Positions 11,261 through 44,682 of a DNA stretch of 44,682 nt are shown piece by piece. Positions within the stretch are counted from its first letter, which is position 1, and the number at the start of each line of letters is the position of its first letter. The position numbers and the translations under genes are program-made. Below the pieces are notes generated by a model. It searched no databases. It was not told where the DNA came from and saw only the letters and a list, made by a program, of their open reading frames with translations. The DNA lies in sequence record PX123008.1; one strand, 5' to 3'. Origin of the DNA: a phage.

Positions 11261-11290
11261 TTTGGTCGCTTAAATAGCGAGTGTTAATAT

Positions 11291-11314
11291 GGGGCCCGCA
11301 CGGCCCCTTTTTTA
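11291..11314 (+). terminator. rho-independent terminator after the major tail gene
   Basis: GGGGCC-cgcac-GGCCCC hairpin followed by TTTTTTATT. Confidence 0.6.
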
Positions 11315-12390: not shown

Positions 12391-15033
12391 ATGGCAGATC
12401 AGGCAGCGGGCATCACGCTCAAGGCGGACGTCGCGCAAATTAAAACGGCTAATACTGTGCTGGACACATTTGCGCAGAAATCCGAGAACACAGAACAGAA
12501 AGTAAAAAAATTAAACGACACCCTCGGCAAGTCGAAAAAGGTTACTGGCGACGCTGCGGGCGGAATGGAAAAGTTAGCGACTGAATCGCAGCGTGCCGCC
12601 GATGGCATGACGAAACAAGAGCGACTCGCCAGCCGATTAGGCATGTCGACCAAAAACCTGGGATTCGCATCGCGGAACGCCGCATTCCAGTTACAGGATA
12701 TCGCGGTTACGCTTGAGATGGGTATGCCGGTGCACCGCGTTATGCTTCAGCAGCTACCACAGCTTACTGGGGCGTTTGGCGGGTTGGGTAACACACTGCG
12801 TTATGTCGTCGGCACCCTCGGCCCGTTAGGTATCGGCATCGCGGCCTTGACGGCAACGCTTGGCGTAGGGGTGGCAATTACGACCCGCGCAGAGAACCAA
12901 GTGGCGGCGCTTAATAAGACGCTGGCGCTGTCCGGTAATATTTCGGGCCTCACAGCTAACCAGATCCTTGTGCTGTCCGAGAACGCTGAGCGCATGGGCG
13001 GGTCATTTCGCAAGACGCGCGACACAATCCAGGCGCTGGCGGCGGCGGGTGTGAAAGCGGGTGGTGACTTCGGCGCATTGGCTAAGGTAGTTAATGACTT
13101 TGCGAAGGTGTCCAGCCAGCCGATCGAGGATGTGGTAGCGGCGGTGGCGAAGCTGTCAACCGACCCCGTTGGCGGACTGCGTGCGCTGGCGGATAAGTAT
13201 CACGTCGTAAACGAAGCGCAGATCCAGCAGGTACAGTCGCTCGTTGATGCGGGTCGTGAGACAGACGCAGTTGCGTTGGCTAACAAAACAGCCGCTGCGT
13301 CGTTCACCAGCATGACCAATGAGATCAAGGCGAACATGGGTACGCTTGAGCGGTCGATGAACGTCGTCACATCGGCAGCCAAATCGATGTGGGACGCTAT
13401 CCTGGATGTGGGTCGCGCGCAGTCCTCCAATGAATCCGAGATGAAAGCGCGCGAATCACTGCAGCGGCTGACCACGGCTTACTATGCCGAGATGAAAGCG
13501 GTAAACGCTGCCGGTGGGGTAATGACTGAAGCGCAGAAAGCACGTATTAACATGCTTTACAGCGAACTGGTCGCCCAGGAAAAAGTGGTGGCGTCGCTCA
13601 CCCTGCGTAACCGTGCCGAGCGGGACAACGCCAGCGCCGCGGAAGAAGCAGCAAAGGCGAACGAGGAGGCCAACCGCACCGCCCGCGACCGCGCCGCGTT
13701 TGAGAAGGAGTACGCAACCAACGCGAAGCGGCGCGCCGACGAGATCGCCCGCCTCAATTTGCTGAATAAGCGTGGCGTTATTGACGAGAAAGAGCTTGCT
13801 GAGGCGGTGAAGCAGGTCAACGAGCGCTACAAAGACCCGGCACCGAAGAAGGCCGCGGCTGTTCGCGTGGATGCAGGGATGAAAATGCTGGAAGTCGCGC
13901 GCAGCGAACTGGCACAGCTTCGAGAATCAGGCAAGCAGATCGAAGCCAACGCGTCGACGCAGACCCGCACGCAACGCGCTCAAGCGGCCCTAAACAAGCT
14001 GATCGCGGATAATGAGCAGTTAATCGCAGCAAGCAAAGAAAGGGCACTAACGGCAGCAGAAAAGCAGCAGATTGCAGAATTCGGACGCGTGAAGGAAGTA
14101 CGCGAGCAGATCGTCGAAGAAGCCAAATTGCTGGACGCGAAAGAGAAGCAGGTCAAGGCGCACGCGCAGATCGACGCCTTCGTTAAGAACCAGAACGCCG
14201 AGCTAAAAGCCACCGCGGCGGGCTATGCGCTTTCCACTCGCGAAGCGGCAAACCTGCGTGAAGAATTGCAGCTAATTGACCGCCTGAAGCGGGTTGGAGC
14301 TAACGATACTGATATTGATCTGGCGGTATCTAAGCTGCGCGAAGTGCAGGAAGCACAGACCGGTGCTAACGCCTCGCTATGGGATGGCTTCAGCCGCGGG
14401 CTTAAGGATAGCGTGGATGAAATGGGTAACGGCTATACGCAGATGACGTCACTCACAAAATTCACGTTCGGCGCTATGCAGGACACGATGAACGAGTTTT
14501 TTGAGACGGGCAAGCTGAACGCAAAGGATATGGTTAAATCCATCCTGAGCGAATTAATAAAGCTGGCTACCTCGCAGGCATTCAAGTCCATCGTTAGCGC
14601 TTTCGGTGGCGACGGCGGAAAAAACGGATTGTTCGGCGCTATCTTCTCGGGCCTCACTAAGAATGCGGACGGCGGAGCGTACGCAGGAGGCAATCTCGCG
14701 GCATATTCGGGGAAAGTGGTAAGCCAGCCTACCTTTTTCAGTTATGGCGTTCAGGCGTTCGCTAAGGGCGCGGGATTGATGGGCGAGGCTGGACCCGAGG
14801 CCATCATGCCACTGAAGCGCGGGCCGGACGGGAAACTGGGTGTTGCCGCGTCTGGCGCAGGCGGTGGTATGGTCGTGACGACTAACGTTTACACGGGGTC
14901 CGGTAAAACAGATACCAGTGTCAGCGGGCCGGACCCCCGTACCGCGCAGGCGTTCGGCAAGCAAATCACCGAAGCGGTGAAGGCCGAGATCGTGAAAGCG
15001 ACGAAACCGGGTGGTGTACTTTACAAACGATGA
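12391..15033 (+). CDS. tail tape measure protein
   Basis: 880 aa, alanine-rich coiled-coil-like with a glycine-rich C-terminal region; follows the G/GT-like chaperone. Confidence 0.85.
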   Translation: MADQAAGITLKADVAQIKTANTVLDTFAQKSENTEQKVKKLNDTLGKSKKVTGDAAGGMEKLATESQRAADGMTKQERLASRLGMSTKNLGFASRNAAFQLQDIAVTLEMGMPVHRVMLQQLPQLTGAFGGLGNTLRYVVGTLGPLGIGIAALTATLGVGVAITTRAENQVAALNKTLALSGNISGLTANQILVLSENAERMGGSFRKTRDTIQALAAAGVKAGGDFGALAKVVNDFAKVSSQPIEDVVAAVAKLSTDPVGGLRALADKYHVVNEAQIQQVQSLVDAGRETDAVALANKTAAASFTSMTNEIKANMGTLERSMNVVTSAAKSMWDAILDVGRAQSSNESEMKARESLQRLTTAYYAEMKAVNAAGGVMTEAQKARINMLYSELVAQEKVVASLTLRNRAERDNASAAEEAAKANEEANRTARDRAAFEKEYATNAKRRADEIARLNLLNKRGVIDEKELAEAVKQVNERYKDPAPKKAAAVRVDAGMKMLEVARSELAQLRESGKQIEANASTQTRTQRAQAALNKLIADNEQLIAASKERALTAAEKQQIAEFGRVKEVREQIVEEAKLLDAKEKQVKAHAQIDAFVKNQNAELKATAAGYALSTREAANLREELQLIDRLKRVGANDTDIDLAVSKLREVQEAQTGANASLWDGFSRGLKDSVDEMGNGYTQMTSLTKFTFGAMQDTMNEFFETGKLNAKDMVKSILSELIKLATSQAFKSIVSAFGGDGGKNGLFGAIFSGLTKNADGGAYAGGNLAAYSGKVVSQPTFFSYGVQAFAKGAGLMGEAGPEAIMPLKRGPDGKLGVAASGAGGGMVVTTNVYTGSGKTDTSVSGPDPRTAQAFGKQITEAVKAEIVKATKPGGVLYKR

Positions 15034-15039
15034 TAAAAT

Positions 15040-15069
15040 GGCCCTCACATCCATCGTGGGGGCTTTTTT
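15040..15069 (+). terminator. hairpin plus T6 immediately upstream of the gpM-like gene, possible attenuator
   Basis: imperfect hairpin GCCCTCAC...GTGGGGGC followed by TTTTTT abutting the ATG at 15070. Confidence 0.35.
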
Positions 15070-25104: not shown

Positions 25105-25150
25105 AGTATTACCCTTTTTAGCGAGGGGGCTGTATTGCCCCGACACGTTC

Positions 25151-26776: not shown

Positions 26777-26795
26777 CGTGTTGTCTCCAGGTATT

Positions 26796-26821: not shown

Positions 26822-26823
26822 TC

Positions 26824-26852
26824 AATATAATGCAACCAATATGATTATGCAA
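26824..26852 (-). promoter_or_regulatory. sigma70-like promoter (TTGCAT-N17-TATATT) with two ATTGGTTGCAT copies
   Basis: hexamers read directly; motif copies at 26831..26840 and 26848..26857. Confidence 0.5.
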
Positions 26853-26857
26853 CCAAT

Positions 26858-29294: not shown

Positions 29295-29298
29295 CTCT

Positions 29299-29517
29299 TT
29301 ATTCCGCCTTTTTCCAGACTTCGGTTTCACTGTTCCAGTTCCTTTTTGTAGCGTCGTAGTTGGTGGCGTGTCCGATGTGCACACCGGTAGCCCGGAAGCT
29401 CTTAAATTTTTGCCAGCACACCGTCAACGGCAGCGGATCATTCATGCCCGCGATAAACCATACGCGATCGCCCGGTTTACATTCGCCCAGCTTGGTGAGT
29501 CGGTAATGTTCTTTCAT
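29299..29517 (-). CDS. hypothetical protein
   Basis: 72 aa from ATG with GGGAG RBS. Confidence 0.4.
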   Translation of the reverse strand: MKEHYRLTKLGECKPGDRVWFIAGMNDPLPLTVCWQKFKSFRATGVHIGHATNYDATKRNWNSETEVWKKAE

Positions 29518-29532
29518 CGTCATGTCTCCCAA

Positions 29533-29557
29533 AAATGGCGGGACAAGCCCGCCGTAT
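29533..29557 (-). terminator. hairpin plus U-tract
   Basis: minus-strand GGCGGGC-ttgt-CCCGCC followed by ATTTTT; contains a GGGACA unit. Confidence 0.4.
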
Positions 29558-29560
29558 TAA

Positions 29561-29734
29561 TTATTTTTGTTCTGCACGGTAGCGGCGCTGCCGTTCGCGC
29601 TCTTTCTTATTGCGGCACGATTTGCACTCTGCCCGATACCCGTCTGGACTGCGCGCAGTCTTACCGGTGTATTTGTGGAACTGGGATAGCGGCTTTACAC
29701 AGCCGCAATTACTACAACGTTTTTCTTCAATCAT
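29561..29734 (-). CDS. small zinc-ribbon protein
   Basis: 57 aa from ATG with GAGGA RBS; CxxC...C...CxxC (CSNCGC...ECKSC); promoter-like TTGCTG-N17-TATAGT with motif copies upstream. Confidence 0.4.
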   Translation of the reverse strand: MIEEKRCSNCGCVKPLSQFHKYTGKTARSPDGYRAECKSCRNKKERERQRRYRAEQK

Positions 29735-29774
29735 CTCTAAAATCCTCGATATGGCTAACCGGCACACTATACCG

Positions 29775-30053
29775 CTATGCGACCAATTCAGCAACCAATA
29801 AATCGCAGTCGGCTATGTTGTCGATAACGCGAACGTCAGCACCGCGGCGGGCCATTCGCTCATGTTCACGTACCTGGTGCGGCTTCGGTTTTCCGCCTGG
29901 GCGCTTCACTTCGACGAACACTATTATGCCGTTGATGATAATAATCAGGTCGGGCGCACCTGCGCGCCCCTCCCATGCCAGTTTTCGGCAGAATCCGCCA
30001 ACCTCTTTAACCCGTTTCATAAGGTGACGCTGCACCTTGCCTTCTGGTGTCAT
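29775..30053 (-). CDS. VRR-NUC domain nuclease
   Basis: 92 aa, start overlaps the polymerase stop; PDLIII...VEVKRPGGK PD-(D/E)xK-like core. Confidence 0.6.
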   Translation of the reverse strand: MTPEGKVQRHLMKRVKEVGGFCRKLAWEGRAGAPDLIIIINGIIVFVEVKRPGGKPKPHQVREHERMARRGADVRVIDNIADCDLLVAELVA

Positions 30054-32344: not shown

Positions 32345-32511
32345 TGCTTTATCCTCACTACGGCGTCAGCGCTGCCGATCATGGAGAAGATGCCGTCTGA
32401 CAGGGCGATCTCTTCGCCGTTGTTGCGAATCTCGGCAACTGTGAAATATTCCCCCAGTAGCTTGGACCATACTTGCATTCCGACTTTTACTTCGCTGGCT
32501 TTAATACGCAT
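32341..32511 (-). CDS. small ORF (56 aa), doubtful
   Basis: ATG with AGGA upstream; stop overlaps the polymerase start codon; not in the supplied track. Confidence 0.3.
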   Translation of the reverse strand: MRIKASEVKVGMQVWSKLLGEYFTVAEIRNNGEEIALSDGIFSMIGSADAVVRIKQ

Positions 32512-32526
32512 TTTTCATTGTCCTAT

Positions 32527-32552
32527 TAAAAAGCCCGCATTAAGCGGGCTTG
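32527..32552 (-). terminator. rho-independent terminator after the SSB gene
   Basis: minus-strand AGCCCGC-ttaat-GCGGGCT followed by TTTTT. Confidence 0.55.
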
Positions 32553-32569
32553 AATAGTGGGCTTTGCCC

Positions 32570-33355
32570 TTAACGGCGGCGACGTTTACGTGGTGCTTCG
32601 TCTTCGTCGTCTTCGTCCTCATCTTCGTCATCGCGGGACTTGCGGCGTTTGCGAGGTTTTTCATCTTCCTCATCGTCGTCGTCATCGCGGCGCTTTGACT
32701 TTTTGGACTTACGCGGCTTGTCGTCTTCGTCATCGTCATCACGACGTTTTGACTTTTTGGACTTGCGCGGGCTTTCGTCTTCGTCATCGTTGTCCAGGTC
32801 TTCGTCGGAACATGAAGACCCGCCACCTCCGAAGGCTTCGCCGTCTTCACGGAAGCGTAAACCCAGCAAGCCAGCACCGAGTCCCTTGCCGTTGGTGTTG
32901 TTCCACGCCCAAATATCAAGGGACACGTTGCAATAACAACCGGAGTAGATCTCCTGGCCTTCAATCTCGTCGCCGTCGATGGTCAGACCTTGTTCAGTCT
33001 GCTTCTCGCCGAGTGACGTTTGAATGATAGGCTGTTTGAACGATTTGGCGTTGATATACAACATGCCTTCGAATTCTTCGGTCACTTCGTCGCGCTCGTC
33101 ACCGTCGCGGACTGCGCATTCCTTCGAATCCTGGGCGTAGTGGCGGTCCATCCACTTATCGGCATTCTTCTCGGATTTCAGCTTGTCGGTGAGCACTGCG
33201 CGTGCTGCCGCTTCCACTTTGTCCACCTGCGGATCTTCTTTATCCAGAAGAATCACGGCACGGTATGCCGGTTTTTGTCCATCCTGTTTAGGGGTGTCAC
33301 GTTCCCAGATTTTCAGGAAGCATACGCGCACATTTTTCAGGTTGACTTTAGCCAT
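32570..33355 (-). CDS. single-stranded DNA-binding protein (T7 gp2.5-like), with a repetitive charged C-terminal tail
   Basis: 261 aa from ATG 33355; N-terminal MAKVNLKNVRVCFLK recalls gp2.5-type SSBs; sits between the Cas4-like nuclease and the polymerase; tail of three ~20-aa K/R-D/E repeats ending APRKRRRR. Confidence 0.5.
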   Translation of the reverse strand: MAKVNLKNVRVCFLKIWERDTPKQDGQKPAYRAVILLDKEDPQVDKVEAAARAVLTDKLKSEKNADKWMDRHYAQDSKECAVRDGDERDEVTEEFEGMLYINAKSFKQPIIQTSLGEKQTEQGLTIDGDEIEGQEIYSGCYCNVSLDIWAWNNTNGKGLGAGLLGLRFREDGEAFGGGGSSCSDEDLDNDDEDESPRKSKKSKRRDDDDEDDKPRKSKKSKRRDDDDDEEDEKPRKRRKSRDDEDEDEDDEDEAPRKRRRR

Positions 33356-33420
33356 TTTCCAATTCCTCATTTTCACATGTATCGGGGTTATTGGAAGCCA
33401 CCCCGTTCGGCTTGGTTGCC

Positions 33421-33449
33421 AATTTACTTGGTTGCGCCTGAGCGGTCAA
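33421..33449 (-). promoter_or_regulatory. sigma70-like promoter (TTGACC-N17-TAAATT) for the SSB gene, flanked by GCAACCAAG copies
   Basis: hexamers read directly; motif copies at 33412..33420 and 33428..33436. Confidence 0.45.
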
Positions 33450-33688
33450 GCATTTTCATTAAAAAGATTTCTGGTCACGTAGTTGGTAGCGTTCTCGATC
33501 CAGCTTAATGGCGGGCGGTCGCCATGTCTCGCGATCCACGCCACGGCAATGGTGCTGTAACCATCGTCCAGCCATTGGGTTGGATGGCGAATCATCCAGG
33601 CCACCATTAACACGCCTTGCACACAATGCAGGATAAAGCCCAGCGCGCCGAGCAAAAACATCAATAAGATCGCAAATACTTTATTCAT
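33446..33688 (-). CDS. small membrane protein
   Basis: 80 aa, GAGGA RBS; two hydrophobic segments. Confidence 0.45.
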   Translation of the reverse strand: MNKVFAILLMFLLGALGFILHCVQGVLMVAWMIRHPTQWLDDGYSTIAVAWIARHGDRPPLSWIENATNYVTRNLFNENA

Positions 33689-35111
33689 TGCTTAAGTCCT
33701 CGTCAGTAGCTACAGACCACGCAGGGCGCGGGTCGTCGATGGGTGCTAATACCGGTTTAGCGGGTGCGCGCGTGATTTTATCACATAGCTTCGCCCATAC
33801 TTTCGGTTTCTCGTCCTTCAGTACCTTCTCGGCATCCGTAGGACTGAGTAATGTTTCTTTGTACATCACATCACGCTTGATCCGGGCCTTCGTGAAGATT
33901 TCAATCACTTCGCTCTCGTCCGCCCACTTACGGATTCCTTCCTTACCGGCAACCATCTTGAGGCCCAGCGATTCGCCATCGCCCGCCATTACGGCCTTGA
34001 ATACTGCGGACTCGATAGCCTTGATGTGCTGGCGCATTGCGTCTAGACCTTCATATGCCTTGCGCAGTTCCGCGGCGGTCATAGCGCCGGGGGCCGCTTC
34101 TTTCTTACCACGCTTCTCACGTCGTGCCGCTTTGCGGGCTTCGCGGGCCATATTGCGGTCGTGATTGGCGCATTCTTCCTCTGTCGCAATACTCACGTCG
34201 TCGCCCAGGTCTTCGTCTGTTGCCGTTGGTTGGGTCATCGTGTCGATTGCAGCCTTAGCGCGGGCGCTACACTGATCCGCAAATCGGCACCACTGACACG
34301 CATCAACGCTCGGACGGAAGTCGGCGCGGGTGAGTCCCTTTTTGCCTCGGGCGTACGCTTCCAGGGCGGCGATAGCACGCTTGGACGCAAACTTAGCGAA
34401 TATCTCCAGGGCTTCTACCGAAATATCCCACTCCGACGCCCCGCCGCAATACGGCTGGAAGATAACCAGGCGCACGGTAGTAATGTCGTACATAGTTTTC
34501 AGCTTGCGCAGCAGGCCGAGCGCGTACAACATAAGCTGTTTGTTTTCTTTCGCCTCGACCTTATGCCGTCCCGTCTTCAGGTCGCCAACAATCAGCATGT
34601 ACGTGCCGTCGGTCTTCTTCATGACCATGACCATATCGGCAGTGCCGAACGTCTTAACCCTGTTGCCGTCGATCTCGAAGCCAGAGTGTAGGACACGGGT
34701 TAGATCGGCGCGCATCTCAAGCTGGACAAACTCCGCAACTTCGAGGAGCGGTCGCCAGTGGTCGATGTACGCGTCGCACTGTTTCACCATATCGTCGTTG
34801 ACCAGTATGCCGCCTTTCGGTGCTTTCGGGTGCGACTTTACCGGCCCCTTACCTTCGTTCTCGACGTAGCACCCTTTGTAAGTCTTCGCGGTTATCAGCT
34901 TCCCCCCGGCGATAATGCGGTTGAGCACGACTTCCGATACGGTGTGCATACTCGTACCGTTAATTGCCGCTTGCCCGGATTCGTTCGGGATCCCTTGTTC
35001 TACCACCAGGGCGGCGGGGCAACCCATCCATTTTTTAGCACCGGATGGGCCGAGTAATGAGTGTTCCGTGTTGCTACCGGATTGCGTTTTACGTTTTGGT
35101 TTAATCGCCAT
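33681..35111 (-). CDS. Cas4-like PD-(D/E)xK exonuclease with C-terminal Cys cluster
   Basis: 476 aa; cysteine cluster YCGG...CQWCRFADQC; charged lysine-rich C-terminal region; commonly next to gp2.5-like SSB and PolA in phage replication modules (memory). Confidence 0.6.
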   Translation of the reverse strand: MAIKPKRKTQSGSNTEHSLLGPSGAKKWMGCPAALVVEQGIPNESGQAAINGTSMHTVSEVVLNRIIAGGKLITAKTYKGCYVENEGKGPVKSHPKAPKGGILVNDDMVKQCDAYIDHWRPLLEVAEFVQLEMRADLTRVLHSGFEIDGNRVKTFGTADMVMVMKKTDGTYMLIVGDLKTGRHKVEAKENKQLMLYALGLLRKLKTMYDITTVRLVIFQPYCGGASEWDISVEALEIFAKFASKRAIAALEAYARGKKGLTRADFRPSVDACQWCRFADQCSARAKAAIDTMTQPTATDEDLGDDVSIATEEECANHDRNMAREARKAARREKRGKKEAAPGAMTAAELRKAYEGLDAMRQHIKAIESAVFKAVMAGDGESLGLKMVAGKEGIRKWADESEVIEIFTKARIKRDVMYKETLLSPTDAEKVLKDEKPKVWAKLCDKITRAPAKPVLAPIDDPRPAWSVATDEDLSNE

Positions 35112-35290
35112 TATTCCACCCGTGTAAACTGGACAATTACATATTTCACATTAGCCATGCCCGCTTTTTCGACGCGGCGCTTAACTTCATTTTGTGCGTC
35201 CACAAAGCAATTGCTTGCGTTGGTGTTTTCAACAATAAAAGAGCAATGGTCGTCTAATTCGTGGCATGTTGCCAGGACGAAGAATTTCAT
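35111..35290 (-). CDS. hypothetical small protein
   Basis: 59 aa from ATG with GGGAG RBS; cysteine-containing (CHELDDHC). Confidence 0.35.
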   Translation of the reverse strand: MKFFVLATCHELDDHCSFIVENTNASNCFVDAQNEVKRRVEKAGMANVKYVIVQFTRVE

Positions 35291-35541
35291 TATTGTGTCT
35301 CCCAGCGGTCGATTGTTTTTGCTTCGGATGCAACAGCGAAGCGAACAAATTCCAGATTGGAATCCGCCCAAATATAAAAGTCGGGATTAATAAAGGTGGT
35401 GCGCTTAATTTGCGCGGGGGTGTTGCGGCGTTTGTCTATTACGGCAACGCGTGACTGAAAATTGCCGATGCGTTCGAATAGCCAATAATATGGGCGTTGG
35501 TCGCGGGAGTCCACCGCCTCGATTAGCGTGAAGCGTGCCAT
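35290..35541 (-). CDS. hypothetical protein
   Basis: 83 aa, ATG preceded by a terminator and a weak RBS. Confidence 0.4.
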   Translation of the reverse strand: MARFTLIEAVDSRDQRPYYWLFERIGNFQSRVAVIDKRRNTPAQIKRTTFINPDFYIWADSNLEFVRFAVASEAKTIDRWETQ

Positions 35542-35556
35542 TGTCTCGTCCTCTAA

Positions 35557-35583
35557 AAAGAGGCCCGCTAATCTGCGGGCCGG
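35557..35583 (-). terminator. rho-independent terminator
   Basis: minus-strand GGCCCGC-agattag-CGGGCC followed by TCTTTTT. Confidence 0.5.
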
Positions 35584-35589
35584 AATATA

Positions 35590-36102
35590 TTAATCTTCCA
35601 GTTCGAAATAGGTTTCGACGATTTCTTTTAACTCGGTGTGGAAGTCTTCGACGTCGTCATCTTCCAGCTTGGCGATTGATTTGATCTCGAACGATTCCAG
35701 CAGGTCGTCGAATTCGTCGTTCGCGTCGTCGTCATCACCACCGGCAATAATCGCGGCATACTGTTTGATTTCGTCGCGCATCTCCGCCAGCGGATCGGCA
35801 TCTTTCTTACCTTTGCCTTTCGCCGGTGCTTTCTTAGCCTTAGCCGGTTTTTCGTCTTCGGCGTCTTCGTCGTCGTCATCTTCTACGACTTCTTTTTTGG
35901 ACTTACCTTTCGCCGGTGCTTTTTTAGTTTTCGCAGGTGCTTCGTCTTCAGCGTCGTCATCTTCGACAACTTCCTTTTTGGCCTTAGACGGCTTCTTGTC
36001 TTCCTGCTTACCAACTGCAGCGCCAACGGTTTCATAATGCTTTGCAATGGTTTCCAGTGCTACGACGCCGCGAGTGATCAGGTTTACGATTTGTTCGAAC
36101 AT
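35590..36102 (-). CDS. acidic tandem-repeat protein, first gene of the leftward early operon
   Basis: 170 aa from ATG 36102 with GGAGATATACC RBS; two ~30-aa repeats (KKEVVEDDDAEDE...APAKGK) and a strongly acidic C-terminus; an in-frame ATG at 36282 has a weak RBS. Confidence 0.5.
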   Translation of the reverse strand: MFEQIVNLITRGVVALETIAKHYETVGAAVGKQEDKKPSKAKKEVVEDDDAEDEAPAKTKKAPAKGKSKKEVVEDDDDEDAEDEKPAKAKKAPAKGKGKKDADPLAEMRDEIKQYAAIIAGGDDDDANDEFDDLLESFEIKSIAKLEDDDVEDFHTELKEIVETYFELED

Positions 36103-36338
36103 GGTATATCTCCGATTGGTTAAGTTTAGGTGTCGGCAGTTAACTTCGTCGGTGGCCTTAACATATTGCCAGGTTACGCGTTCTCCCGTTCGGGTAGTGG
36201 ACCTGGTTATATAATCACGGTTGGGAATCCTGACACTTCGATCCGGCCCCTGCGTTGCCCCTCTCCAGTTTGCGTCCTGCATCCTGTCGACGGAGTGAAT
36301 GATAGATTGGTTGCAGGATGGGTGTCAACAACTAATTT

Positions 36339-36503: not shown

Positions 36504-36833
36504 ATGAATGTAAACGACGCAATCGAAATGTTAACGAAGACTGTTTGCAGTGAGACAAGCCGGTCATGGGCTTACACCGATGCCGTGGGGGCGGTGTTAT
36601 TTGAAATCGAACGACTGCGGCTTGCCGAAAAAGAATTGCGCGCCAGGCTGGAACTACTCAATGGTACGGCAGCCAGCAAGCTGCAAAAGCACAATGAAGA
36701 AATGGAAGAATACAAAAAACAGGTTATTCGTTTGCGCGATGAGGGGAAGTCATGGGCGATGATCGCCGAGCTAACCGGAATTAATCAGAGCACCGTGCGA
36801 TCCTGGGTACGCAATAATAAAACCTCTAAGTAA
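36504..36833 (+). CDS. helix-turn-helix DNA-binding protein
   Basis: 109 aa, GAGGA RBS; C-terminal HTH-like segment GKSWAMIAELTGINQSTVRSWVRN preceded by a coiled-coil; directly upstream of the primase-helicase gene. Confidence 0.55.
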   Translation: MNVNDAIEMLTKTVCSETSRSWAYTDAVGAVLFEIERLRLAEKELRARLELLNGTAASKLQKHNEEMEEYKKQVIRLRDEGKSWAMIAELTGINQSTVRSWVRNNKTSK

Positions 36834-36843
36834 GGCAACGGCA

Positions 36844-39108
36844 ATGAGCTTAATTAAATTCGCAGTAACACGACCCGCTAAAAAAGGCGAAAAAGCCAGG
36901 GCGGAAAACTTCCAGATGACCACCGATGAGTTTTTCGAATTTATCAAAGATGCGAAAGAAATCTCCTCGGTGCATATCAACAAGACGGAAGATAAAGCCG
37001 AGTATGCGCGCCGCAAGCGTAAGGCCGATGGCATCGTGGCGTATACCAGTGACGGATTGCGTCGTAAGACCAGTGCGGTGGACCGCTCGATCCTGTTCTT
37101 TGATATTGACCGCACAGACACCCGCACCCTGCGCCGCTGCCGTAAGGCGTTCATCGACGCGGGTCTGGAACACGTATTTCACACCACCACCGGCGATCGC
37201 CACCCGCTGAAGGGCGGCACGCGTTGCGCCCGTTTCCTGGTGCTCACTGACAAGCCTGTACCGGCTGAAGACCTGGGCCGCGTCCAGTATGCACTATTAC
37301 ACCAACTCGGCCTGTCAGATGTGGACTTCGATGATTGCACGAAAGACACAAACCGCCTTATGTACCTGCCTCACCAGCAATCGGTTGTTAAGTGTCACTA
37401 CGGCAAACGTGCCCGCGTCCGTCGTCTGCTTCGCCTGGCGGATAAGCTGGGAGTGAAAAAAGAGGAAGTACGCCGCGAATTAACCCAGGGCGATGACGGC
37501 GTGGCGGACGGCATTCTGGATTGGTGCTTCCAGGCAGGATTCGAACCGCTGTCGTCCGGTCGTGGTTATGAAGTGCCGTGCCCTAACGAACACCTGCACA
37601 GCGGCGAAGGGTCCACCGCTATCATGGTTAAGGATGGCGAGATCCGTTTCAAGTGTATGCACACCGGCAACGAGTGTTGCTCGGAACTGAATAGACACCA
37701 GCACCTGGCGCTACGTCTTATCGGGATCCCGGACCACCTGAACGTCGAACCGCACAACATGTCCCGCAAGCAAATCGCCGCCATCCTTCCGGGACTGGAC
37801 GACGAGGAAGTGGAATCGTGCTATGAACATATCGTTGATGCTGTTGGCGACGGCGAAGAATACGGCGTGTGCACCGATGCGGATCTGGATAACGAGCCGG
37901 TAGCGCTGTTTAGCAAGCACGACCCGATCATCGAGGGGCTGATTAACTTTAAATCGACCTGGTATCTTGCCGGTGAGTCGAACATCGGTAAGTCGTTCTA
38001 TGTGCTGGGCCAGATGGCGTCCGTATCTGCCGGTATCCCGTTTGGCGGTGCGAAGGTCGTCCAGTGCCATAACTTCTATTTCGACGCGGAAGGTGGTGAA
38101 GCCTCCAACCAGCGTAAGGAAGCATTGCAGATCAAATATGAGCACGACCTGGACAAGCTGCACATTATCGATCTGCAATCACGCGGCTGGGATATCACCA
38201 GCAAATCCGGCTTGCGTGAAGTTATCAGCTTCATCAACCGCACCGCTAACGGCGAACCGGTTGGCCTGGTGGCGTTCGACTCACTCAACCAGACTGTTGC
38301 GCTGCGGTCCGCCGATGCGAAGCCGTTCGACGAGAACAACGCCAGCGATATGGGCGAAGTGGTCAAAGCGCTGAAGGCCATCGCGGAAAATACAGGCGGC
38401 AGTGCGGGCGTCATCCACCACCCGGCGAAAGGTGCAAACGGCAGCAGAACGCCACGCGGGTCCGGCGCGCTTCATGGTGCTGTCGATTCTGCGTTCTTCC
38501 TGGAGCAACCGGACGACAATCAGCCCGGCCAATTGAACCTGTATCACGAGAAGGCACGTAACGGCATCAAGCAAGCGCCGCGCGGCTTCGTCCTGCTCAA
38601 GTGCAAGGTTAAGGTGGATCTCCGCAAGTCCGAAGCGTTCGAAGCCCACCAGTCCGCCAGCACCGGGCCGGACTTCGGCGATGTGGTTGCCGGTTGGGAC
38701 GTCAAGCCAATCGCATCCACGCCACGCGACGAGACTCTTTACCTCGTACCGGTCGCCCTGGCACCGTTCGCTATCGAACAGGCAAAGGCCGCTGGCAAAG
38801 CAGCAGTTAAGGAAGAGAACGCCGCAGGACCGCGCAACGAAAAAGAGAAAGTGCTTTATGCGGCGCTGGAAAAACTGATGGAAGATAACCCGGACCATAC
38901 CGGATTCAGTAAGTCGGCAATTGTCCGCCAGGCTGGACTGGCGAAAGGCGGCACATCGACGAAGGCAATCGACGATATGGTCGAGCGCGGCGTACTCGGT
39001 TTTTATACAGATCCGCACACCGGGGCCATCTATGGGTCGTCTAATATCGTCATAAAAACGAATATACCCATCACGCTTTCGGCGACCGATGACGACCTGA
39101 AAGATTAA
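36844..39108 (+). CDS. primase-helicase (AEP-type primase-polymerase domain + P-loop helicase domain)
   Basis: 754 aa; N-terminal ILFFDIDRTD acidic motif; central Walker A LAGESNIGKS and Walker B-like VAFDSL. Confidence 0.75.
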   Translation: MSLIKFAVTRPAKKGEKARAENFQMTTDEFFEFIKDAKEISSVHINKTEDKAEYARRKRKADGIVAYTSDGLRRKTSAVDRSILFFDIDRTDTRTLRRCRKAFIDAGLEHVFHTTTGDRHPLKGGTRCARFLVLTDKPVPAEDLGRVQYALLHQLGLSDVDFDDCTKDTNRLMYLPHQQSVVKCHYGKRARVRRLLRLADKLGVKKEEVRRELTQGDDGVADGILDWCFQAGFEPLSSGRGYEVPCPNEHLHSGEGSTAIMVKDGEIRFKCMHTGNECCSELNRHQHLALRLIGIPDHLNVEPHNMSRKQIAAILPGLDDEEVESCYEHIVDAVGDGEEYGVCTDADLDNEPVALFSKHDPIIEGLINFKSTWYLAGESNIGKSFYVLGQMASVSAGIPFGGAKVVQCHNFYFDAEGGEASNQRKEALQIKYEHDLDKLHIIDLQSRGWDITSKSGLREVISFINRTANGEPVGLVAFDSLNQTVALRSADAKPFDENNASDMGEVVKALKAIAENTGGSAGVIHHPAKGANGSRTPRGSGALHGAVDSAFFLEQPDDNQPGQLNLYHEKARNGIKQAPRGFVLLKCKVKVDLRKSEAFEAHQSASTGPDFGDVVAGWDVKPIASTPRDETLYLVPVALAPFAIEQAKAAGKAAVKEENAAGPRNEKEKVLYAALEKLMEDNPDHTGFSKSAIVRQAGLAKGGTSTKAIDDMVERGVLGFYTDPHTGAIYGSSNIVIKTNIPITLSATDDDLKD

Positions 39109-39183
39109 ATTTTGCGCGCGTTGGTTGCCGATATGGGAATTCCCATATCGCTAAAAGATTAATTTGTGCGCGCGTTGGTTGCC
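39101..39183. repeat. imperfect ~29-bp direct repeats bracketing a perfect 22-bp palindrome
   Basis: aagattaaattttgcgcgcgttggttgcc (39101..39129) and aagattaatttgtgcgcgcgttggttgcc (39155..39183) flank cgatatgggaattcccatatcg (39129..39150); the first repeat includes the primase stop codon. Confidence 0.85.
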
Positions 39184-39250
39184 ATTTTGAGTGTTTTTAG
39201 TTGGTCGCATTGGTTGCCGTGTAGTGTGAATATAATGAATAGTTATGCAA

Positions 39251-39430
39251 TAAAACTGCATAAACTAAGCGGGACAGAAAGCGGGACAAACAAGGGGCGG
39301 GACAAAGCGGGACAGCACCCCCTGTCCCGCCCGGATGGCGCGGCCTGGAGAGGAGCGGGACAAGCGGGACAAAGCCCAGTCTTTCAGACTAGACGGGGGT
39401 CAACGGCCCCCCTCGTCTGAGACTGAATAA
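39251..39430. repeat. iteron cluster B: 6 direct and 1 inverted GCGGGACA copies plus the conserved ~60-bp terminal hairpin
   Basis: GGGACA at 39271, 39283, 39299, 39309, 39357, 39366; TGTCCC at 39323; 39366..39430 nearly identical to 12264..12327. Confidence 0.85.
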
Positions 39431-39585
39431 AATCCGGAGATTGCAAAATACACGGCAGCATGATGCGAAGTGCGGTCGCGGATGAACTAGGCAACCAATG
39501 CTAGTTGCATTATGCGGAGTGGAAAACGCAGTTTGCAGTTACAGCAGATAGCGATCAACTTTTTCATGCGCGTGATTAATATTGG

Positions 39586-39614
39586 TTGCATTCACCCCGG
39601 CACCCTGCTATATT
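39586..39614 (+). promoter_or_regulatory. sigma70-like promoter (TTGCAT-N17-TATATT) with ATTGGTTGCA copies and a conserved leader
   Basis: hexamers read directly; leader GGTTGCACACCAACATGAGGA then ATG at 39643. Confidence 0.55.
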
Positions 39615-39642
39615 GGTTGCACACCAACATGAGGACTGAACA

Positions 39643-39840
39643 ATGGAACACGAAGACCTGGTCGACGAATTGCTTGAGCTGATTGAGGCTGAGAACAAAG
39701 CCGATTTGCAAGCACGCGCAGCATACATGGTCGGCAACATTAAGAAATCGCGCCACTACGCCGGATTGCGTGTAAAGGCGCAAGAGGCATTGCTGCAATT
39801 CCTGGACAGCGTAACCATCACGAAGAGGACTGAACGATGA
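39643..39840 (+). CDS. hypothetical early protein
   Basis: 65 aa, GAGGA RBS, first gene after the consensus-like promoter. Confidence 0.5.
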   Translation: MEHEDLVDELLELIEAENKADLQARAAYMVGNIKKSRHYAGLRVKAQEALLQFLDSVTITKRTER

Positions 39841-40142
39841 GAGCATTAATATGGAATTACACAATGGCTGTGGCGAAGCTGTATGAAGCAAAACACACTA
39901 ACGGCAACGCAGACGACGCGCGCCAGGCTGTCATCCTGGCCCAGCAGGGAATCATGAACGCGTTCGACGATATGTTTGCCAGCCTGGACGAACTGGAACC
40001 GCTGCGCGTGGCAATCTGCGAATATGCGATGGCATTTGCCCGTGAACGCCTGGCGTATCGCTTCGGGATCGGCGAGACGGCAGTGACAAACGTCGCCCGG
40101 ATTAAAGCCCAGCGCGAACTATTCGCCCAGCTTGCGAAATAA
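39837..40142 (+). CDS. hypothetical early protein
   Basis: 101 aa, ATGA overlap with the upstream gene. Confidence 0.45.
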   Translation: MRALIWNYTMAVAKLYEAKHTNGNADDARQAVILAQQGIMNAFDDMFASLDELEPLRVAICEYAMAFARERLAYRFGIGETAVTNVARIKAQRELFAQLAK

Positions 40143-40421
40143 GTGGTAAAAATGGGCCGTAGACGAGCAAAACAGCTTTCGTGGCATATTCCACTGCATT
40201 GCATACGAATATGGGCTAAGAATGCGAATGCGGGGGATTCTGTATTCTGGTGCTATCGCGATGACGTAAAGCCGTTGACGCAGATTCGCTACCTGCACCA
40301 GTTCGCAGCGCAACACGATTTCAGGGTGCGGACCTCCTTGCAACCAATGGGGATTCGTATTACATTACGCCGGAAGCCCGCCGTTGAGCGGGTAGGAAAA
40401 CACTGGAGACTGAGCAAATGA
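40143..40421 (+). CDS. hypothetical early protein
   Basis: 92 aa; start uncertain (GTG 40143 or ATG 40152, both with weak RBS). Confidence 0.35.
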   Translation: MVKMGRRRAKQLSWHIPLHCIRIWAKNANAGDSVFWCYRDDVKPLTQIRYLHQFAAQHDFRVRTSLQPMGIRITLRRKPAVERVGKHWRLSK

Positions 40422-40570
40422 CACCAATGCAAAGAGCACTAATGGCGGGATTCTCGCAGAAGTTTATTTCAGTAGACGCCTGCATAGCTGATTATGAGAT
40501 GGACGGCATCGCTACGGTATGCGATGGCGACTATAAGACTGTTGACGAGATTGAGGAGACTGAGCAATGA
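40418..40570 (+). CDS. small ORF (50 aa), not in the supplied track
   Basis: ATG preceded by GGAGACTGAGCAA, the same context that precedes the next gene; ATGA overlaps on both sides. Confidence 0.4.
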   Translation: MTPMQRALMAGFSQKFISVDACIADYEMDGIATVCDGDYKTVDEIEETEQ

Positions 40571-41094
40571 GATTACTATTCCGCCGCAAATCAGACGGTC
40601 GCATACTGAAGCCGATCCAGACCCTGGATTCCTACGTCCGCTTGCACCGCGCGGCAAGCGATCGGGTATTCCGCGCATCGAAGGGCACATTGCCGCAGTT
40701 CTTCGAAGTCCTCACACACGATATTGAGCGCGGCGATGTGTTGCGTGATATTCGCGACGGGCAATTGTGGGTCGTCGAGTATGTCGGTCTTCATGGCCTG
40801 CGTATGCAATCCCGCAAGGATGGCGTAGCTGGTATGACGTACTTCGGGCTAATCCACTACGTGCGCGTGGGTCGCAAGTACAGCCTTCGCGACCGCCAGC
40901 CGCATGAGCGCGCTACTTACGACGCGACCCAGGTGCAATCTAAAATTCGCCGTGCCGCGCACGAAATCGTCAATCGCTTTGATGCCGTGACGAATGCGCA
41001 GCGCCAGGCACGGGAATACGGCGTCGGGTTTATCCGTGTCGAACCAGACGGCAGCATGAAGGCCATCGACCCGCGCTCGGTGATTCTGAAATGA
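40567..41094 (+). CDS. hypothetical protein
   Basis: 175 aa, GGAG RBS. Confidence 0.5.
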   Translation: MRLLFRRKSDGRILKPIQTLDSYVRLHRAASDRVFRASKGTLPQFFEVLTHDIERGDVLRDIRDGQLWVVEYVGLHGLRMQSRKDGVAGMTYFGLIHYVRVGRKYSLRDRQPHERATYDATQVQSKIRRAAHEIVNRFDAVTNAQRQAREYGVGFIRVEPDGSMKAIDPRSVILK

Positions 41095-41231
41095 GTGCGA
41101 CGATCCGTGATATGCTGATGCACAACCGCTTTGAGATAGGCGGTCGTGTGTTCCGCAATTACTTCGTGGCGCGAGCCTGGGCGCGCCATATTGGCAAACC
41201 AGAGGGGGCAATACGATGCTACACGATTTGA
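41091..41231 (+). CDS. small ORF (46 aa), doubtful
   Basis: ATGA overlap with the upstream stop; overlaps the next gene start. Confidence 0.3.
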   Translation: MSATIRDMLMHNRFEIGGRVFRNYFVARAWARHIGKPEGAIRCYTI

Positions 41232-41503
41232 TTTATTGGTTTGGATTGGGGTGCGCGACACTCTTTGTTACTGTGCTGGCGCTGTTGGTATGGGTGTTCC
41301 TGATTTGGCCCGCGGTGGAAGCCGCCAGCATTACCCGCATGACGTTTCAGATATACAAGCGCCGTGGCATCACTGAGCACCCTACCAGGTTGCGCATGTG
41401 GTGGCTATGGTATCGGGATATGATAGGGGGCAGGATGTTCGAGGCCGTCCGATCGGAAGGGTGGGAGTGGAAAGGCGTCGGCAAGTGGTCCATTTTCGAT
41501 TAA
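41216..41503 (+). CDS. small membrane protein
   Basis: 95 aa, GAGGGGG RBS; N-terminal TM segment (YWFGLGCATLFVTVLALLVWVFLIW). Confidence 0.45.
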   Translation: MLHDLIYWFGLGCATLFVTVLALLVWVFLIWPAVEAASITRMTFQIYKRRGITEHPTRLRMWWLWYRDMIGGRMFEAVRSEGWEWKGVGKWSIFD

Positions 41504-41520
41504 ATACGCAAGCGTGATAT

Positions 41521-41555
41521 AGTCCCAGTGAGATAAAACTTACTGGGACTTTTTT
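41521..41555 (+). terminator. hairpin plus T6 immediately upstream of the holin start
   Basis: AGTCCCAGT-gagataaaactt-ACTGGGACT followed by TTTTTT, then ATG at 41556. Confidence 0.5.
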
Positions 41556-41846
41556 ATGGATAAGCTAAACGAGTGGTTATTTGCCATCGCATGTCTGGCT
41601 GGCGGCTTCGTAGGCGCACGCATTCATGGCGAGGCAACGAAAGGGCCGTTGAACTTCGTTTTATATATCGTGGTTGGCTTCCTGTGTGCCATATTTGGTG
41701 CGCCAGCTATCGCCGAGTGGTCTGGTTTGTCCGGCGAGCGCACTGTCGCCGGTTTGGGCTTCGTAACTGCCATCTTCTGGATGCCAATCGCCGATCGGAT
41801 CAGGGAGACTATTGCGTCGTTCCGACTTCCGGGGGGTGCAAAATGA
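41556..41846 (+). CDS. holin (class I-like, three predicted TM segments)
   Basis: 96 aa with three hydrophobic segments and a charged C-terminus; first gene of the lysis cassette. Confidence 0.6.
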   Translation: MDKLNEWLFAIACLAGGFVGARIHGEATKGPLNFVLYIVVGFLCAIFGAPAIAEWSGLSGERTVAGLGFVTAIFWMPIADRIRETIASFRLPGGAK

Positions 41847-42088
41847 TTATCACCGTCCTGTTGTTTGTTATCATAGGGGCTTCGTCCCTGTTTAACGTGT
41901 ATGCGCCGTCCGTTCAGGATGGCATTTTAGGCCGGGTGTTATATCTGCTAACGGCGATGATCTGCGTTATCGGATTGTTGCAAACAGGAGACGTATCTGA
42001 CACCACCTGGACCGCGTTAATCTGGCTGTTTGCATTGCGCACGCTGCGTAATGCTGTTTTAAATGGGGTAAAACATGCGATTCAGTGA
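41843..42088 (+). CDS. second holin-like membrane protein (holin/antiholin or pinholin candidate)
   Basis: 81 aa, GGGGGG RBS, two hydrophobic segments; ATGA overlap with the holin and overlap with the endolysin start. Confidence 0.5.
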   Translation: MIITVLLFVIIGASSLFNVYAPSVQDGILGRVLYLLTAMICVIGLLQTGDVSDTTWTALIWLFALRTLRNAVLNGVKHAIQ

Positions 42089-42566
42089 CAACGGTCTAAG
42101 ATTTACGGCAGCATGGGAGACTTTCAGCCCAGTGCCGTATTTCGCGACTAAGAAAGAGCAGGCCCGCGGCCTGTACACCTGGGGATATGGTCACACCGGC
42201 ACTAACCCGCCTCGAAGCATTACCCGCGCGGAAGCGCTGGAGCTACTTAAGCGCGATGTGGCGTATGCTGAGGACTGGGTGAATAAATACGCACATCCCA
42301 GCATCAACCAGGCGCAATTCGACGCGCTGGTGGACCTGGTAATCAATGCAGGTCCGGGTCCGATTGTACCGGATAACGTTGCCAATGACTTCGATGATGC
42401 GGTGCGCCTGGGTGACTGGGCGAAGGTCCGTGCTACTCTGCCACAGTTCCGCAAGCAAGGTGGGGAAGTGCTGAAGGGGTTAGTCCGTCGAGCAATCGGC
42501 AGGCAGGCGCTATTCGATGGTAAGCAGTGGGACGTTGCCGAGAAGATCGGACGTAACGCAGCATAA
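42075..42566 (+). CDS. endolysin, GH24 lysozyme family
   Basis: 163 aa; FSDNGLRF...WETFSPVPY...YTWGYGHTG and QAQFDALVDLVINAG match the phage lysozyme pattern from memory. Confidence 0.85.
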   Translation: MRFSDNGLRFTAAWETFSPVPYFATKKEQARGLYTWGYGHTGTNPPRSITRAEALELLKRDVAYAEDWVNKYAHPSINQAQFDALVDLVINAGPGPIVPDNVANDFDDAVRLGDWAKVRATLPQFRKQGGEVLKGLVRRAIGRQALFDGKQWDVAEKIGRNAA

Positions 42567-42582: not shown

Positions 42583-42996
42583 ATGTTAAAAAGTATTCTT
42601 GATCATAACGCCGACGCGCTCGCCGCGCTGGCTAAAACCAAAGACCCAGGCGCACGCGCTATTGTAGCGGATACGATCAGCCATGCGGGGGTCTTCGACG
42701 CGAAGTTACCCAGCCCGCCGGAAAGTAAGCCGGTGACAAGTGCAACCGTAACTATCACACCGGAATCCGCCGCAGTTGGTGCGAAGGCCACCGCTTCGGT
42801 TGCGGTACAGCCATCCGACGCAACTAACAAGGCCGGGTCGTGGGTGTCGTCGAATCCTGCCTGCGCGGCAATCGATCAGACTACCGGAGAAATCACAGCC
42901 CAAACGGAAGGTAGCGCCCACATCTTTTGGGTGGCATCCGACGGCAGCGGGGTGCTAGCGTCCGCCATCTTCACCGTAACGGGGGCAGAAGAATAA
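42583..42996 (+). CDS. bacterial Ig-like (Big_2-type) domain protein
   Basis: 137 aa; C-terminal ~80 aa resemble a Big_2 fold (TVTITPESAAVGAKATASVAV...SWVSSNPACAAIDQTTGEITAQTEGSAHI). Confidence 0.55.
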   Translation: MLKSILDHNADALAALAKTKDPGARAIVADTISHAGVFDAKLPSPPESKPVTSATVTITPESAAVGAKATASVAVQPSDATNKAGSWVSSNPACAAIDQTTGEITAQTEGSAHIFWVASDGSGVLASAIFTVTGAEE

Positions 42997-43003
42997 AACC
43001 ACA

Positions 43004-43028
43004 AGCCCGGTTAATTCCGGGCTTTTTA
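43004..43028 (+). terminator. rho-independent terminator after the Ig-like gene
   Basis: AGCCCGG-ttaatt-CCGGGCT followed by TTTTT. Confidence 0.65.
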
Positions 43029-43032
43029 TTGC

Positions 43033-43061: not shown

Positions 43062-43093
43062 TGCGACCAATCAACGAGAGGAGTGGTAAACTA

Positions 43094-43174
43094 TGGCACG
43101 TAATGATATTTGGGTATTGGCGATCTGGTCAGCCGCAGCATTTATCGGTATGGTTATTTGCGAATTGCTATAAC
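43094..43174 (+). CDS. small hydrophobic peptide ORF (26 aa), doubtful
   Basis: ATG 9 nt after GAGAGGAG; MARNDIWVLAIWSAAAFIGMVICELL. Confidence 0.3.
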
Positions 43175-43234
43175 CCGCCACAATAGGGACCGTGGTATAT
43201 TGTCCTCGGTCCCATAATCAGGAAGTGGATTAAT

Positions 43235-44593: not shown

Positions 44594-44619
44594 AGCCCAC
44601 CGATTTGGTGGGCTTTTTT
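44594..44619 (+). terminator. rho-independent terminator
   Basis: GCCCACC-gattt-GGTGGGC followed by TTTTTT. Confidence 0.65.
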
Positions 44620-44682
44620 GTGCCTGTTATAATCCCCTTAGATGGCAGGGCCGTCTCTTATGTTGCCGATGGTCGGCGCATA

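Follow-up and report, generated by a model that had tools for sequence, protein, structure and literature searches.

The hairpin that directly precedes the putative holin gene of a Dhillonvirus genome was found to hold the holin ribosome-binding site in its 3' arm, to touch the holin start codon with its U-tract and to carry an extended -10-like motif against its 5' arm. It was analysed in a window of 44,682 nucleotides, this being the whole stretch of DNA in sequence record PX123008.1, and by comparison with relatives. What could be observed directly is how the hairpin is built and conserved, how its pairing is compensated in three lineages, where the Shine-Dalgarno (SD)-like element lies, and where the -10-like motif stands and how well it is kept. 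Termination, translational repression and a transcription start are what we infer from these observations. The hairpin probably shields the lysis genes from early transcription, and the account that we favour, at close to though short of an even chance, is that it would terminate upstream transcripts and silence those that read through, with holin mRNA starting within its 5' arm.

On its sequence relationships the phage is a Dhillonvirus, i.e. an HK578-like virulent E. coli siphophage. A 2.1-kb stretch around the hairpin matches 157 phage records at 80-99% identity, mostly from E. coli phages; five of these are named Dhillonvirus, and each record that was opened falls in this genus. The gene order, derived by mapping the SECphi18 proteins onto the window, places replication and recombination genes on the minus strand from 21303 to 36282, followed on the plus strand by an upstream replication/early block (36504-41503) that encodes an early protein with a sigma-70 region-4-like HTH (36504-36833), a helicase/primase and small ORFs, and ends with the gene directly upstream of the hairpin (41216-41503). 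The lysis cassette, on the same strand, begins with the putative holin of 96 aa (41556..41846; PHROG 2359 'holin', E = 1e-31) and continues with a second holin-like gene (41843-42088; PHROG 2508 holin), an endolysin (42075-42566; Pfam Phage_lysozyme) and a protein with an Ig-like domain (42583-42996; Pfam Big_2). It is closed on the plus strand by a terminator at 43003..43029, AAGCCCGG-ttaatt-CCGGGCTT with a T-run, which is annotated as such in the records PTXU06 and WFI. A phosphoesterase gene at 43235, placed by the same protein mapping, comes after the cassette, and beyond it lie the terminase and structural genes, running across the window ends.

The holin assignment and its start codon are well defined. 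The protein has three hydrophobic segments, holin is also annotated in the records of relatives, and the N-terminus is kept in the homologues, which were collected by a homologue search (4 proteins) and a profile search (30), those of five lineages aligning from residue 1. The ATG at 41556 is the sole possible start, since a TGA lies in frame at 41529-41531 and no ATG, GTG or TTG occurs between the two. Internal TTG or GTG starts were considered and rejected, as they would lose the first transmembrane segment and conflict with the homologues. The next Met is residue 76, no Met-Lys-Met is present, and the homologues likewise have a single start.

The hairpin reads AGTCCCAGTGAG-ATAAAA-CTTACTGGGACT-TTTTT-ATG over 41521-41558 of the plus strand. 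The first-pass annotation of this DNA had correctly recognized an inverted repeat with 9-bp arms, AGTCCCAGT (41521-41529) being complementary to ACTGGGACT (41542-41550), but its 9-bp stem and 12-nt loop have to be redrawn, because three further pairs (G.U, A-U and G-C) extend the stem to 12 bp and leave a loop of 6 nt. The pyrimidine-rich 5' arm, an anti-SD-like strand, thus spans 41521..41532, the loop ATAAAA 41533..41538 and the 3' arm 41539..41550, and the stem comprises six G-C pairs and one G.U pair (G41530.T41540). The run of six T described earlier is also present, made up of T41550 and the T-run at 41551..41555, but it ends 0 nt and not 1 nt before the ATG at 41556, so that the U-tract abuts the start codon. 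Folded by itself, the hairpin has a free energy of -19.3 kcal/mol (z = -6.9), and none of 200 shuffles folds equally well. When the whole window was dinucleotide-shuffled 200 times, a T-run preceded by a perfect stem of 12 bp or more arose on either strand in only 2 cases. It is the longest stem-plus-T-run in the window and came first in a regional terminator scan. Stem and U-tract lie on the sense strand, 17 nt past the stop codon of the gene at 41216-41503, and show the features of an intrinsic terminator, namely a G+C-containing stem within the range of about 5-14 bp, a short loop and an adjoining U-tract. The GenBank records of the relatives PTXU06 and WFI indeed annotate this hairpin as an ARNOLD-predicted terminator. 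An Rfam scan of 41000-42200 gave no family at threshold, the best match being NsiR1 with 26.2 bits against the required 39 bits, a generic terminator-like similarity. The GTCCC of the hairpin arm resembles the YTGTCCCGC repeats, and a link between the two was looked for and not found.

The same structure encloses the translation signal of the holin gene. It had been proposed that no purine-rich ribosome-binding site precedes this gene; the site is weak, in keeping with that impression, but it exists, as GGGA at 41545-41548 within the 3' arm and 7 nt from the ATG, and relatives have GGAGGA at this place, so that the absence of an SD is unsupported. When anti-SD hybridisation was computed for 57 mapped gene starts, GGGA paired at -3.9 kcal/mol as compared to a median of -6.1 kcal/mol, which ranks the holin 47th of the 57 and upholds the described contrast with other genes. 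An SD-like element at functional spacing from its start codon therefore lies inside a stable helix. In predicted folds, an RNA beginning at 41504 forms the hairpin together with a weak outer helix, CGUGA/UUAUG, over the AUG, and for an RNA beginning at 41530 the minimum-energy fold leaves nucleotides 1-33, with SD and AUG among them, unpaired.

Conservation of this region was assessed in 21 distinct Dhillonvirus-like sequences. Over the 5' flank, both arms and the T-run only 3 of 38 alignment columns are variable, as compared to 77-79% of the third-codon columns in the two flanking genes. These few changes are spread over the flank 41512-41520 (1 of 9 columns), the 5' arm (1 of 12) and the 3' arm (1 of 12), with none in the five columns of the T-run. 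Free variation is seen in the loop (3 of 6 columns), as expected of a loop, and in the spacer past the stop codon (3 of 8). Such a distribution is what one would expect if the hairpin is functional and the 5' flank (CGTGATAT) is too. The terminator features, the strong purifying selection and the overlap with the initiation region together make a role in the control of holin expression well founded, as the first-pass annotation had suggested, although neither its leaderless mode of initiation nor its missing SD is part of it.

More distant holin lineages retain the pairing with altered sequences. In L065, a metagenomic Dhillonvirus-like phage whose holin is 70% identical, the hairpin reads CGTGATATAGTCCCCAGTGAG-gtttaat-CTTACTGGGGCTTTTTTATG, in which a T-A pair is replaced by C-G and GGGA by GGGG, with loop and holin N-terminus also different. 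Kagunavirus and Jerseyvirus phages (holin 46-49% identical) carry ATCCTCCAG-(14-22 nt loop)-CTGGAGGAT-TCATC-TTG, where a canonical GGAGGA, ideally spaced from the TTG start, makes up the 3' arm and no U-run follows; the Snoke record annotates the GGAGG of this hairpin as the holin ribosome-binding site. Within this group, a T-to-G change in the 5' arm lengthens the stem in L043, and changes on the 3' side lengthen it to 13 bp (-21 kcal/mol) in LSPA1. In the KW1E_UTAR lineage (holin about 30-36% identical), TCCCCGGA-7-TTCGGGGA is followed by T8 and the ATG, the arms being UCCCCGGA/UUCGGGGA, and its relative L073 has ATCCCCAAA-7-TTTGGGGAT, then T7, catc and the ATG, with arms AUCCCCAAA/UUUGGGGAU, which differ from those of KW1E by a G-C to A-U double change and hold GGGGA in the 3' arm. 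Compensatory pairing is thus found in L065, in L073 versus KW1E and in L043 and LSPA1, as tabulated by hand without a formal covariation statistic; a covariance-model alignment was not used for this purpose, as it mixed in reverse-strand palindrome matches and missed Kagunavirus. At the homologous place the SD-like element of relatives (GGGG, GGGGA or GGAGGA) is always paired, and across lineages the hairpins have folding energies of -14 to -21 kcal/mol, which implies an off state needing some release. Since the Kagunavirus/Jerseyvirus hairpin does without a U-run, occlusion of the ribosome-binding site, rather than termination, is the more widely conserved property.

A different arrangement is found in LIET2-like and MED16-like Pantoea phages, where the spacers are longer and a stand-alone terminator lies about 60 nt upstream of the holin gene, followed by an obvious -10 sequence (TATAAT in LIET2, TGcTATCGT in MED16) and a free SD. 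The covariance model of the Dhillonvirus element matches the LIET2-type terminator with 25.9 bits. As judged by these comparisons, two themes appear to run through this holin family, the cutting off of the lysis cassette from upstream transcription and, in compact genomes, the pairing of the SD.

The conserved 5' flank, GCGTGATATAGT at 41512..41523 of the plus strand, shares its last nucleotides with the first 3 nt of the hairpin and contains the motif TGaTATAGT (41515-41523), with TG at 41515-41516 and the hexamer TATAGT at 41518-41523. It reads as an extended -10 element of a putative promoter, with TG at -15/-14, T at -12, A at -11 and T at -7, and all of the Dhillonvirus-like sequences keep it. 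The positions that matter most for -10 recognition are -14G, -12T, -11A and -7T, and it is these that are kept in Dhillonvirus, Kagunavirus and the KW1E lineage, with variation at -10 to -8. By holin lineage the flank reads CGTGaTATAGT, CGTGsTATCCT, GGCGtTACTAT and CGCGaTAACAT; CGTGnTAT is kept in Kagunavirus and Jerseyvirus too, and the motif of the KW1E lineage lacks the T of the TG. In all lineages the C-run of the 5' arm begins directly at the end of the hexamer, so that a start 7 nt downstream would lie in the loop or in the part of the 5' arm next to it. The candidate promoter has no recognizable -35 element (TTCGAT, 2 of 6 matches) and its discriminator is GC-rich. The flank could instead pair with the start region, as CGUGA/UUAUG in Dhillonvirus and as GUG/CAU in Kagunavirus.

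The motif recurs at a few other places in the window. TGNTATANT occurs four times when both strands are searched, always on the plus strand (41515, 43193, 44625 and 39606), and three of these sites fall in the non-coding 8% of the window (p = 0.002), with 39606 lying inside an annotated small gene. The looser pattern TGnTAnnnT is likewise enriched in non-coding DNA (17 of 72 matches, p = 5e-5), a frequency of -10-like matches that is inflated by the AT-richness of intergenic DNA. The site at 43193..43201 (TGGTATATT, plus strand) lies 42 nt before the gene at 43235 and is kept in SECphi18, rolling and L065 despite differing flanks. The site at 44625..44633 (TGTTATAAT, plus strand) comes just after a terminator at 44594-44619 and upstream of the small terminase gene, and its context GCCTGTTATAATCCC resembles GCGTGATATAGTCCC at 41512. 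SECphi18 and rolling keep all three of the intergenic sites; in L065, of which a 3.3-kb stretch was retrieved, the two that this stretch covers (the equivalents of 41515 and 43193) are kept with different flanks. A hairpin around the extended -10 at 43187-43214 was considered as a parallel case and rejected, as it has an A.A mismatch in SECphi18 and rolling and is unconserved.

These features can be combined into a scheme in which one hairpin would insulate the lysis cassette in two ways. The 12-bp stem and U-run would end transcripts of the early block (36504-41503) at about the holin start codon. In any RNA that reads through, GGGA, the only SD-like element of the holin gene, would be paired to the C-rich 5' arm, and the outer helix may also cover the AUG, and hence such RNA would be poorly translated. 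Productive holin mRNA would come from the extended -10 element at 41515-41523 with a start near G41530, inside the 5' arm. As such an RNA begins within the arm it could form no hairpin and would not be terminated; it would carry an unstructured, U-rich leader of 26 nt with a free SD and would run to the terminator at 43003.

A possible, if on balance doubtful, alternative is that the hairpin is a leaky attenuator, where most transcripts stop and rare read-through is the sole holin mRNA, whose slow translation from an occluded SD would give the low and delayed holin synthesis that suits a lysis clock, the -10-like flank being incidental or serving to pair with the AUG. The canonical terminator features and the ARNOLD-based annotations in PTXU06 and WFI agree with this reading, as does the presence of about 15 sense-strand terminator-like hairpins between co-directional genes of the window, many of them directly before the next SD; the capsid gene (8458) and the tail-tube gene (11291) are each followed by such a site. 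With so many intra-operon terminators placed ahead of genes that need to be expressed, read-through or antitermination is clearly common in this phage, and the minor tail protein gene at 15070, inside the tail operon, also has a U-run abutting its ATG. An incidental or AUG-pairing flank would fit the predicted outer helix CGUGA/UUAUG and also the LIET2 lineage, where no -7 T is present in the flank (TATAGC or TATATA) beside a homologous-looking terminator, so that similarity of the flank need not always denote a promoter. Against AUG pairing, however, the first start-codon base and the base opposite it show no co-variation (U/A in Dhillonvirus, U/U in Kagunavirus, C/A in L073), and the conserved flank positions are exactly those important for a -10 element. 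Simple attenuation is also at odds with the Kagunavirus/Jerseyvirus hairpin, which buries the SD and is kept, in some isolates in a stronger form, without a U-run, so that transcription attenuation is not its conserved function. Moreover, a rule relating the stability of a hairpin over an SD to translation, reportedly established by de Smit and van Duin, comes into play here, and a hairpin of -19 kcal/mol over an SD of -3.9 kcal/mol predicts very little translation.

Antitermination of the lambda Q/tR' kind is an unlikely explanation, in which a phage factor would modify RNA polymerase late in infection so that terminators are read through and the lysis and structural genes are turned on. The many terminators within co-directional gene blocks would suit such a mechanism, as would the position of one of them just upstream of the lysis cassette, like lambda tR', and a factor might be sought among several upstream ORFs with no assigned function or in the sigma-70 region-4-like HTH protein. 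However, no Q, N or other antiterminator family was recognized among the ORFs scanned over 36504-41503 with Pfam, PHROG and PDB, and upstream no arrangement of a promoter with a short leader is visible. Antiterminated RNA would still have its SD buried in the hairpin, and the hairpin is kept in relatives that have no U-run to be read through.

Very unlikely is an element acting at the level of DNA, where a phage regulator would bind the repeat as an operator or cruciform and the likeness to an RNA hairpin would be deceptive. This would suit an inverted repeat that is perfect over 9 bp and overlaps with a promoter-like motif, and in Kagunavirus another conserved palindrome (TAGGATAATTCCTA) lies just upstream of the hairpin; but in DNA the G41530.T41540 pair does not match, both T-run and SD content belong to one strand only, and the arm sequences differ wholly between lineages with their position to the start codon fixed. 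Leaderless or otherwise SD-independent initiation at the AUG, raised by the first-pass annotation, is barely tenable even though the SD is weak and U-rich tracts can recruit ribosomal protein S1, because TGGGAC stands at 41544-41549, where a start at A41556 would require its -10, and no -10-like hexamer stands at the distance needed, and because relatives have strong SDs at the homologous site, where the Kagunavirus TTG is also poorly suited to it.

Physiologically, a holin made too soon kills the host before any progeny exist, and it is a genuine question how a virulent phage without an RNA polymerase of its own avoids holin expression early in infection. Public annotation already lists the hairpin as a predicted terminator, but that it contains the holin ribosome-binding site, and that a hairpin burying this site is conserved with compensatory change across several phage genera, appears not to have been described in the literature searched. 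The existing annotation is thereby corrected, since the ribosome-binding site lies inside the 'terminator', and the burying of this site in a hairpin is seen to be conserved across genera. Dhillonviruses and Kagunaviruses are often isolated for phage therapy. Under the scheme of a terminating hairpin with an internal start, transcription should begin at about 41530 and 3' ends should lie at about 41555; were the hairpin a simple attenuator, there would be nothing unusual about it. In the literature searched, no 5'- or 3'-end mapping was found for Dhillonvirus or Guernseyvirinae phages, and a Kagunavirus time-course RNA-seq paper gives no resolution at the hairpin site.

Guarding of a gene by structures at its 5' edge is known from mobile elements. 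In IS200, a terminator at nucleotides 12-34 acts against impinging transcription, transcription starts at about nucleotide 40, and a stem-loop sequesters the SD (PMC4513863). For IS10, sequestration of translation signals in secondary structure is attributed to Davis, Simons and Kleckner 1985 as that work is cited in PMC13181058. Like IS200, IS10 and IS50, the holin gene has at its 5' edge a terminator and/or fold-back hairpin that would block outside transcripts or pair the SD, and its own transcript is predicted to start beside or within the structure. Unlike in those elements, a single hairpin would be both terminator and SD trap, the guarded gene encodes a phage holin and not a transposase, and no antisense RNA is evident at the holin.

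In phage lambda, the intrinsic terminator tR' lies upstream of S-R-Rz, hundreds of nucleotides before S, and does not include the SD of S. The Dhillonvirus hairpin is similarly a predicted intrinsic terminator directly upstream of the lysis cassette that would part it from earlier genes, but here the U-run touches the holin ATG, no Q-like gene was seen among the ORFs scanned over 36504-41503, and no pR'-type promoter with a short leader RNA was found. A stem-loop at the 5' end of the lambda holin gene, sdi, governs ribosome access to the start region of S (PMC3359269). The two cases share RNA structure at a holin start, but sdi sets the ratio of Met1 to Met3 starts and hence of antiholin to holin, whereas only one start is available to the holin studied here, whose gene is followed by a separate second holin-like gene. 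With intra-operon attenuators, such as T1 of rpsU-dnaG-rpoD or those after capsid and tail genes, the element shares a hairpin and U-run between co-directional genes. Attenuating terminators inside operons lower downstream expression. They normally leave the next SD outside, unlike the stems at the holin and at 15040, which contain it. As in riboswitch expression platforms, one helix can affect both transcription and translation, but here there is no aptamer, alternative antiterminator fold or Rfam family.

A similar geometry is found elsewhere in the same genome. At 15031..15069 of the plus strand, TGATAAAAT is followed by a hairpin, GGCCCTCAC-7-GTGGGGGCT, by T5 and by the ATG at 15070 of the minor tail protein gene, with a G-run in the 3' arm again serving as SD; SECphi18 and rolling keep this module with a variable loop, and model R1 matches it weakly (13.1 bits). 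A third case, on the plus strand at 11282..11313 after the tail-tube gene, consists of TGTTAATAT, GGGGCC-cgcac-GGCCCC and T6. A -10-like motif stands against the 5' side in 3 of 15 sense-strand terminators as compared to 1.7% of non-coding positions (p = 0.002). A broader proposal, which is tentative and to which we would give less than an even chance, is that Dhillonvirus phages combine terminator and promoter in one compact fusion, of which Kagunavirus, Jerseyvirus and KW1E-like phages would have modified versions. In such a fusion the -10 element would lie against the 5' arm and the SD of the next gene would form the 3' arm, so that the same 40-50 nt would stop transcripts, silence read-through and launch a hairpin-less mRNA. 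It would be a guard in the style of IS10 and IS200, recruited so that a lethal lysis gene stays off while early genes are transcribed, with the holin as the clearest example and recurrences at 15031-15069 and 11282-11313. If confirmed, a fusion of terminator, promoter and ribosome-binding site would be a variant of known mechanisms and not a new category, and a module of such compactness would, if true, be useful for phage engineering and as an insulator in synthetic biology. The modules at 15031 and 11282 are both conserved in other Dhillonviruses.

A second hairpin whose U-run touches a start codon is present on the + strand at 15031-15072, between the tape-measure gene and the minor tail protein gene. 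Its 3' arm holds a G-run Shine-Dalgarno sequence, and its 5' arm is adjoined by TGATAAAAT, a sequence that shares bases with the TGA stop codon. The hairpin is kept in the Dhillonvirus relatives SECphi18 and rolling. Within the lysis cassette, the 3'-terminal part of the second holin-like gene contains a hairpin of 10 bp on the + strand at 42032-42054 (GCATTGCGCA-cgc-TGCGTAATGC, then TGTTTT). It is located about 6 nt upstream of the GGGG Shine-Dalgarno sequence of the endolysin gene, and a G.U pair is replaced by A-U in phage rolling. This hairpin may mediate transcription attenuation or site occlusion between holin and endolysin.

In Kagunavirus, the palindrome TAGGATAATTCCTA, found at approximately 1133-1146 of the Snoke holin locus (L020) and also in all the Kagunavirus loci L029-L060, is positioned 5-6 nt 5' of the conserved CGTG flank and about 11 nt ahead of the 5' arm of the holin hairpin. 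This palindrome, which contains GATAAT, is kept regardless of the upstream gene, with two different upstream contexts represented. It may serve a regulator as a binding site that covers the -35 region, or it may fold into a small hairpin.

Further extended -10 motifs occur on the + strand of the window. TGGTATCAT at 22459-22467, located 45 nt upstream of the tail-fibre gene starting at 22513, overlaps the start codon of a cor-like gene in the opposite orientation and is kept in SECphi18 and rolling. An extended -10-like motif, TGATATGCT, lies at 41108-41116 within a 46-aa ORF (41091-41231) and is kept in three Dhillonviruses; if it is active, the gene at 41216 and the terminator at 41521 would make up a short transcription unit of their own. 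A 109-aa protein is encoded by the gene that opens the + strand early block (36504-36833, +), and its C-terminus matches Sigma70_r4_2 with 26.8 bits (cut-off 25.7) and also HTH_23. As a candidate transcription regulator of the phage, this protein could target the promoters lacking a recognisable -35 element.

Downstream of the lysis cassette, between the terminator at 43003 and the extended -10 motif at 43193, a small ORF (MARNDIWVLAIWSAAAFIGMVICELL; 43093-43173, +) encoding one hydrophobic helix has a strong GAGAGGAG site and is preceded by TTGACT-18-CATACT. The entire segment of about 150 nt carrying this ORF is absent from SECphi18.

The 9-mer YTGTCCCGC forms two clusters of about eight copies apiece, mostly on the - strand, at 12011-12270 and 39269-39372. 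Allowing at most one mismatch, 27 matches were counted against 13.9 expected, a number reached in none of 100 shuffles. These clusters look like iterons or sites bound by a phage DNA-binding protein, possibly marking an origin, and a repeat_region is annotated in the phage rolling record at the position equivalent to the first cluster.
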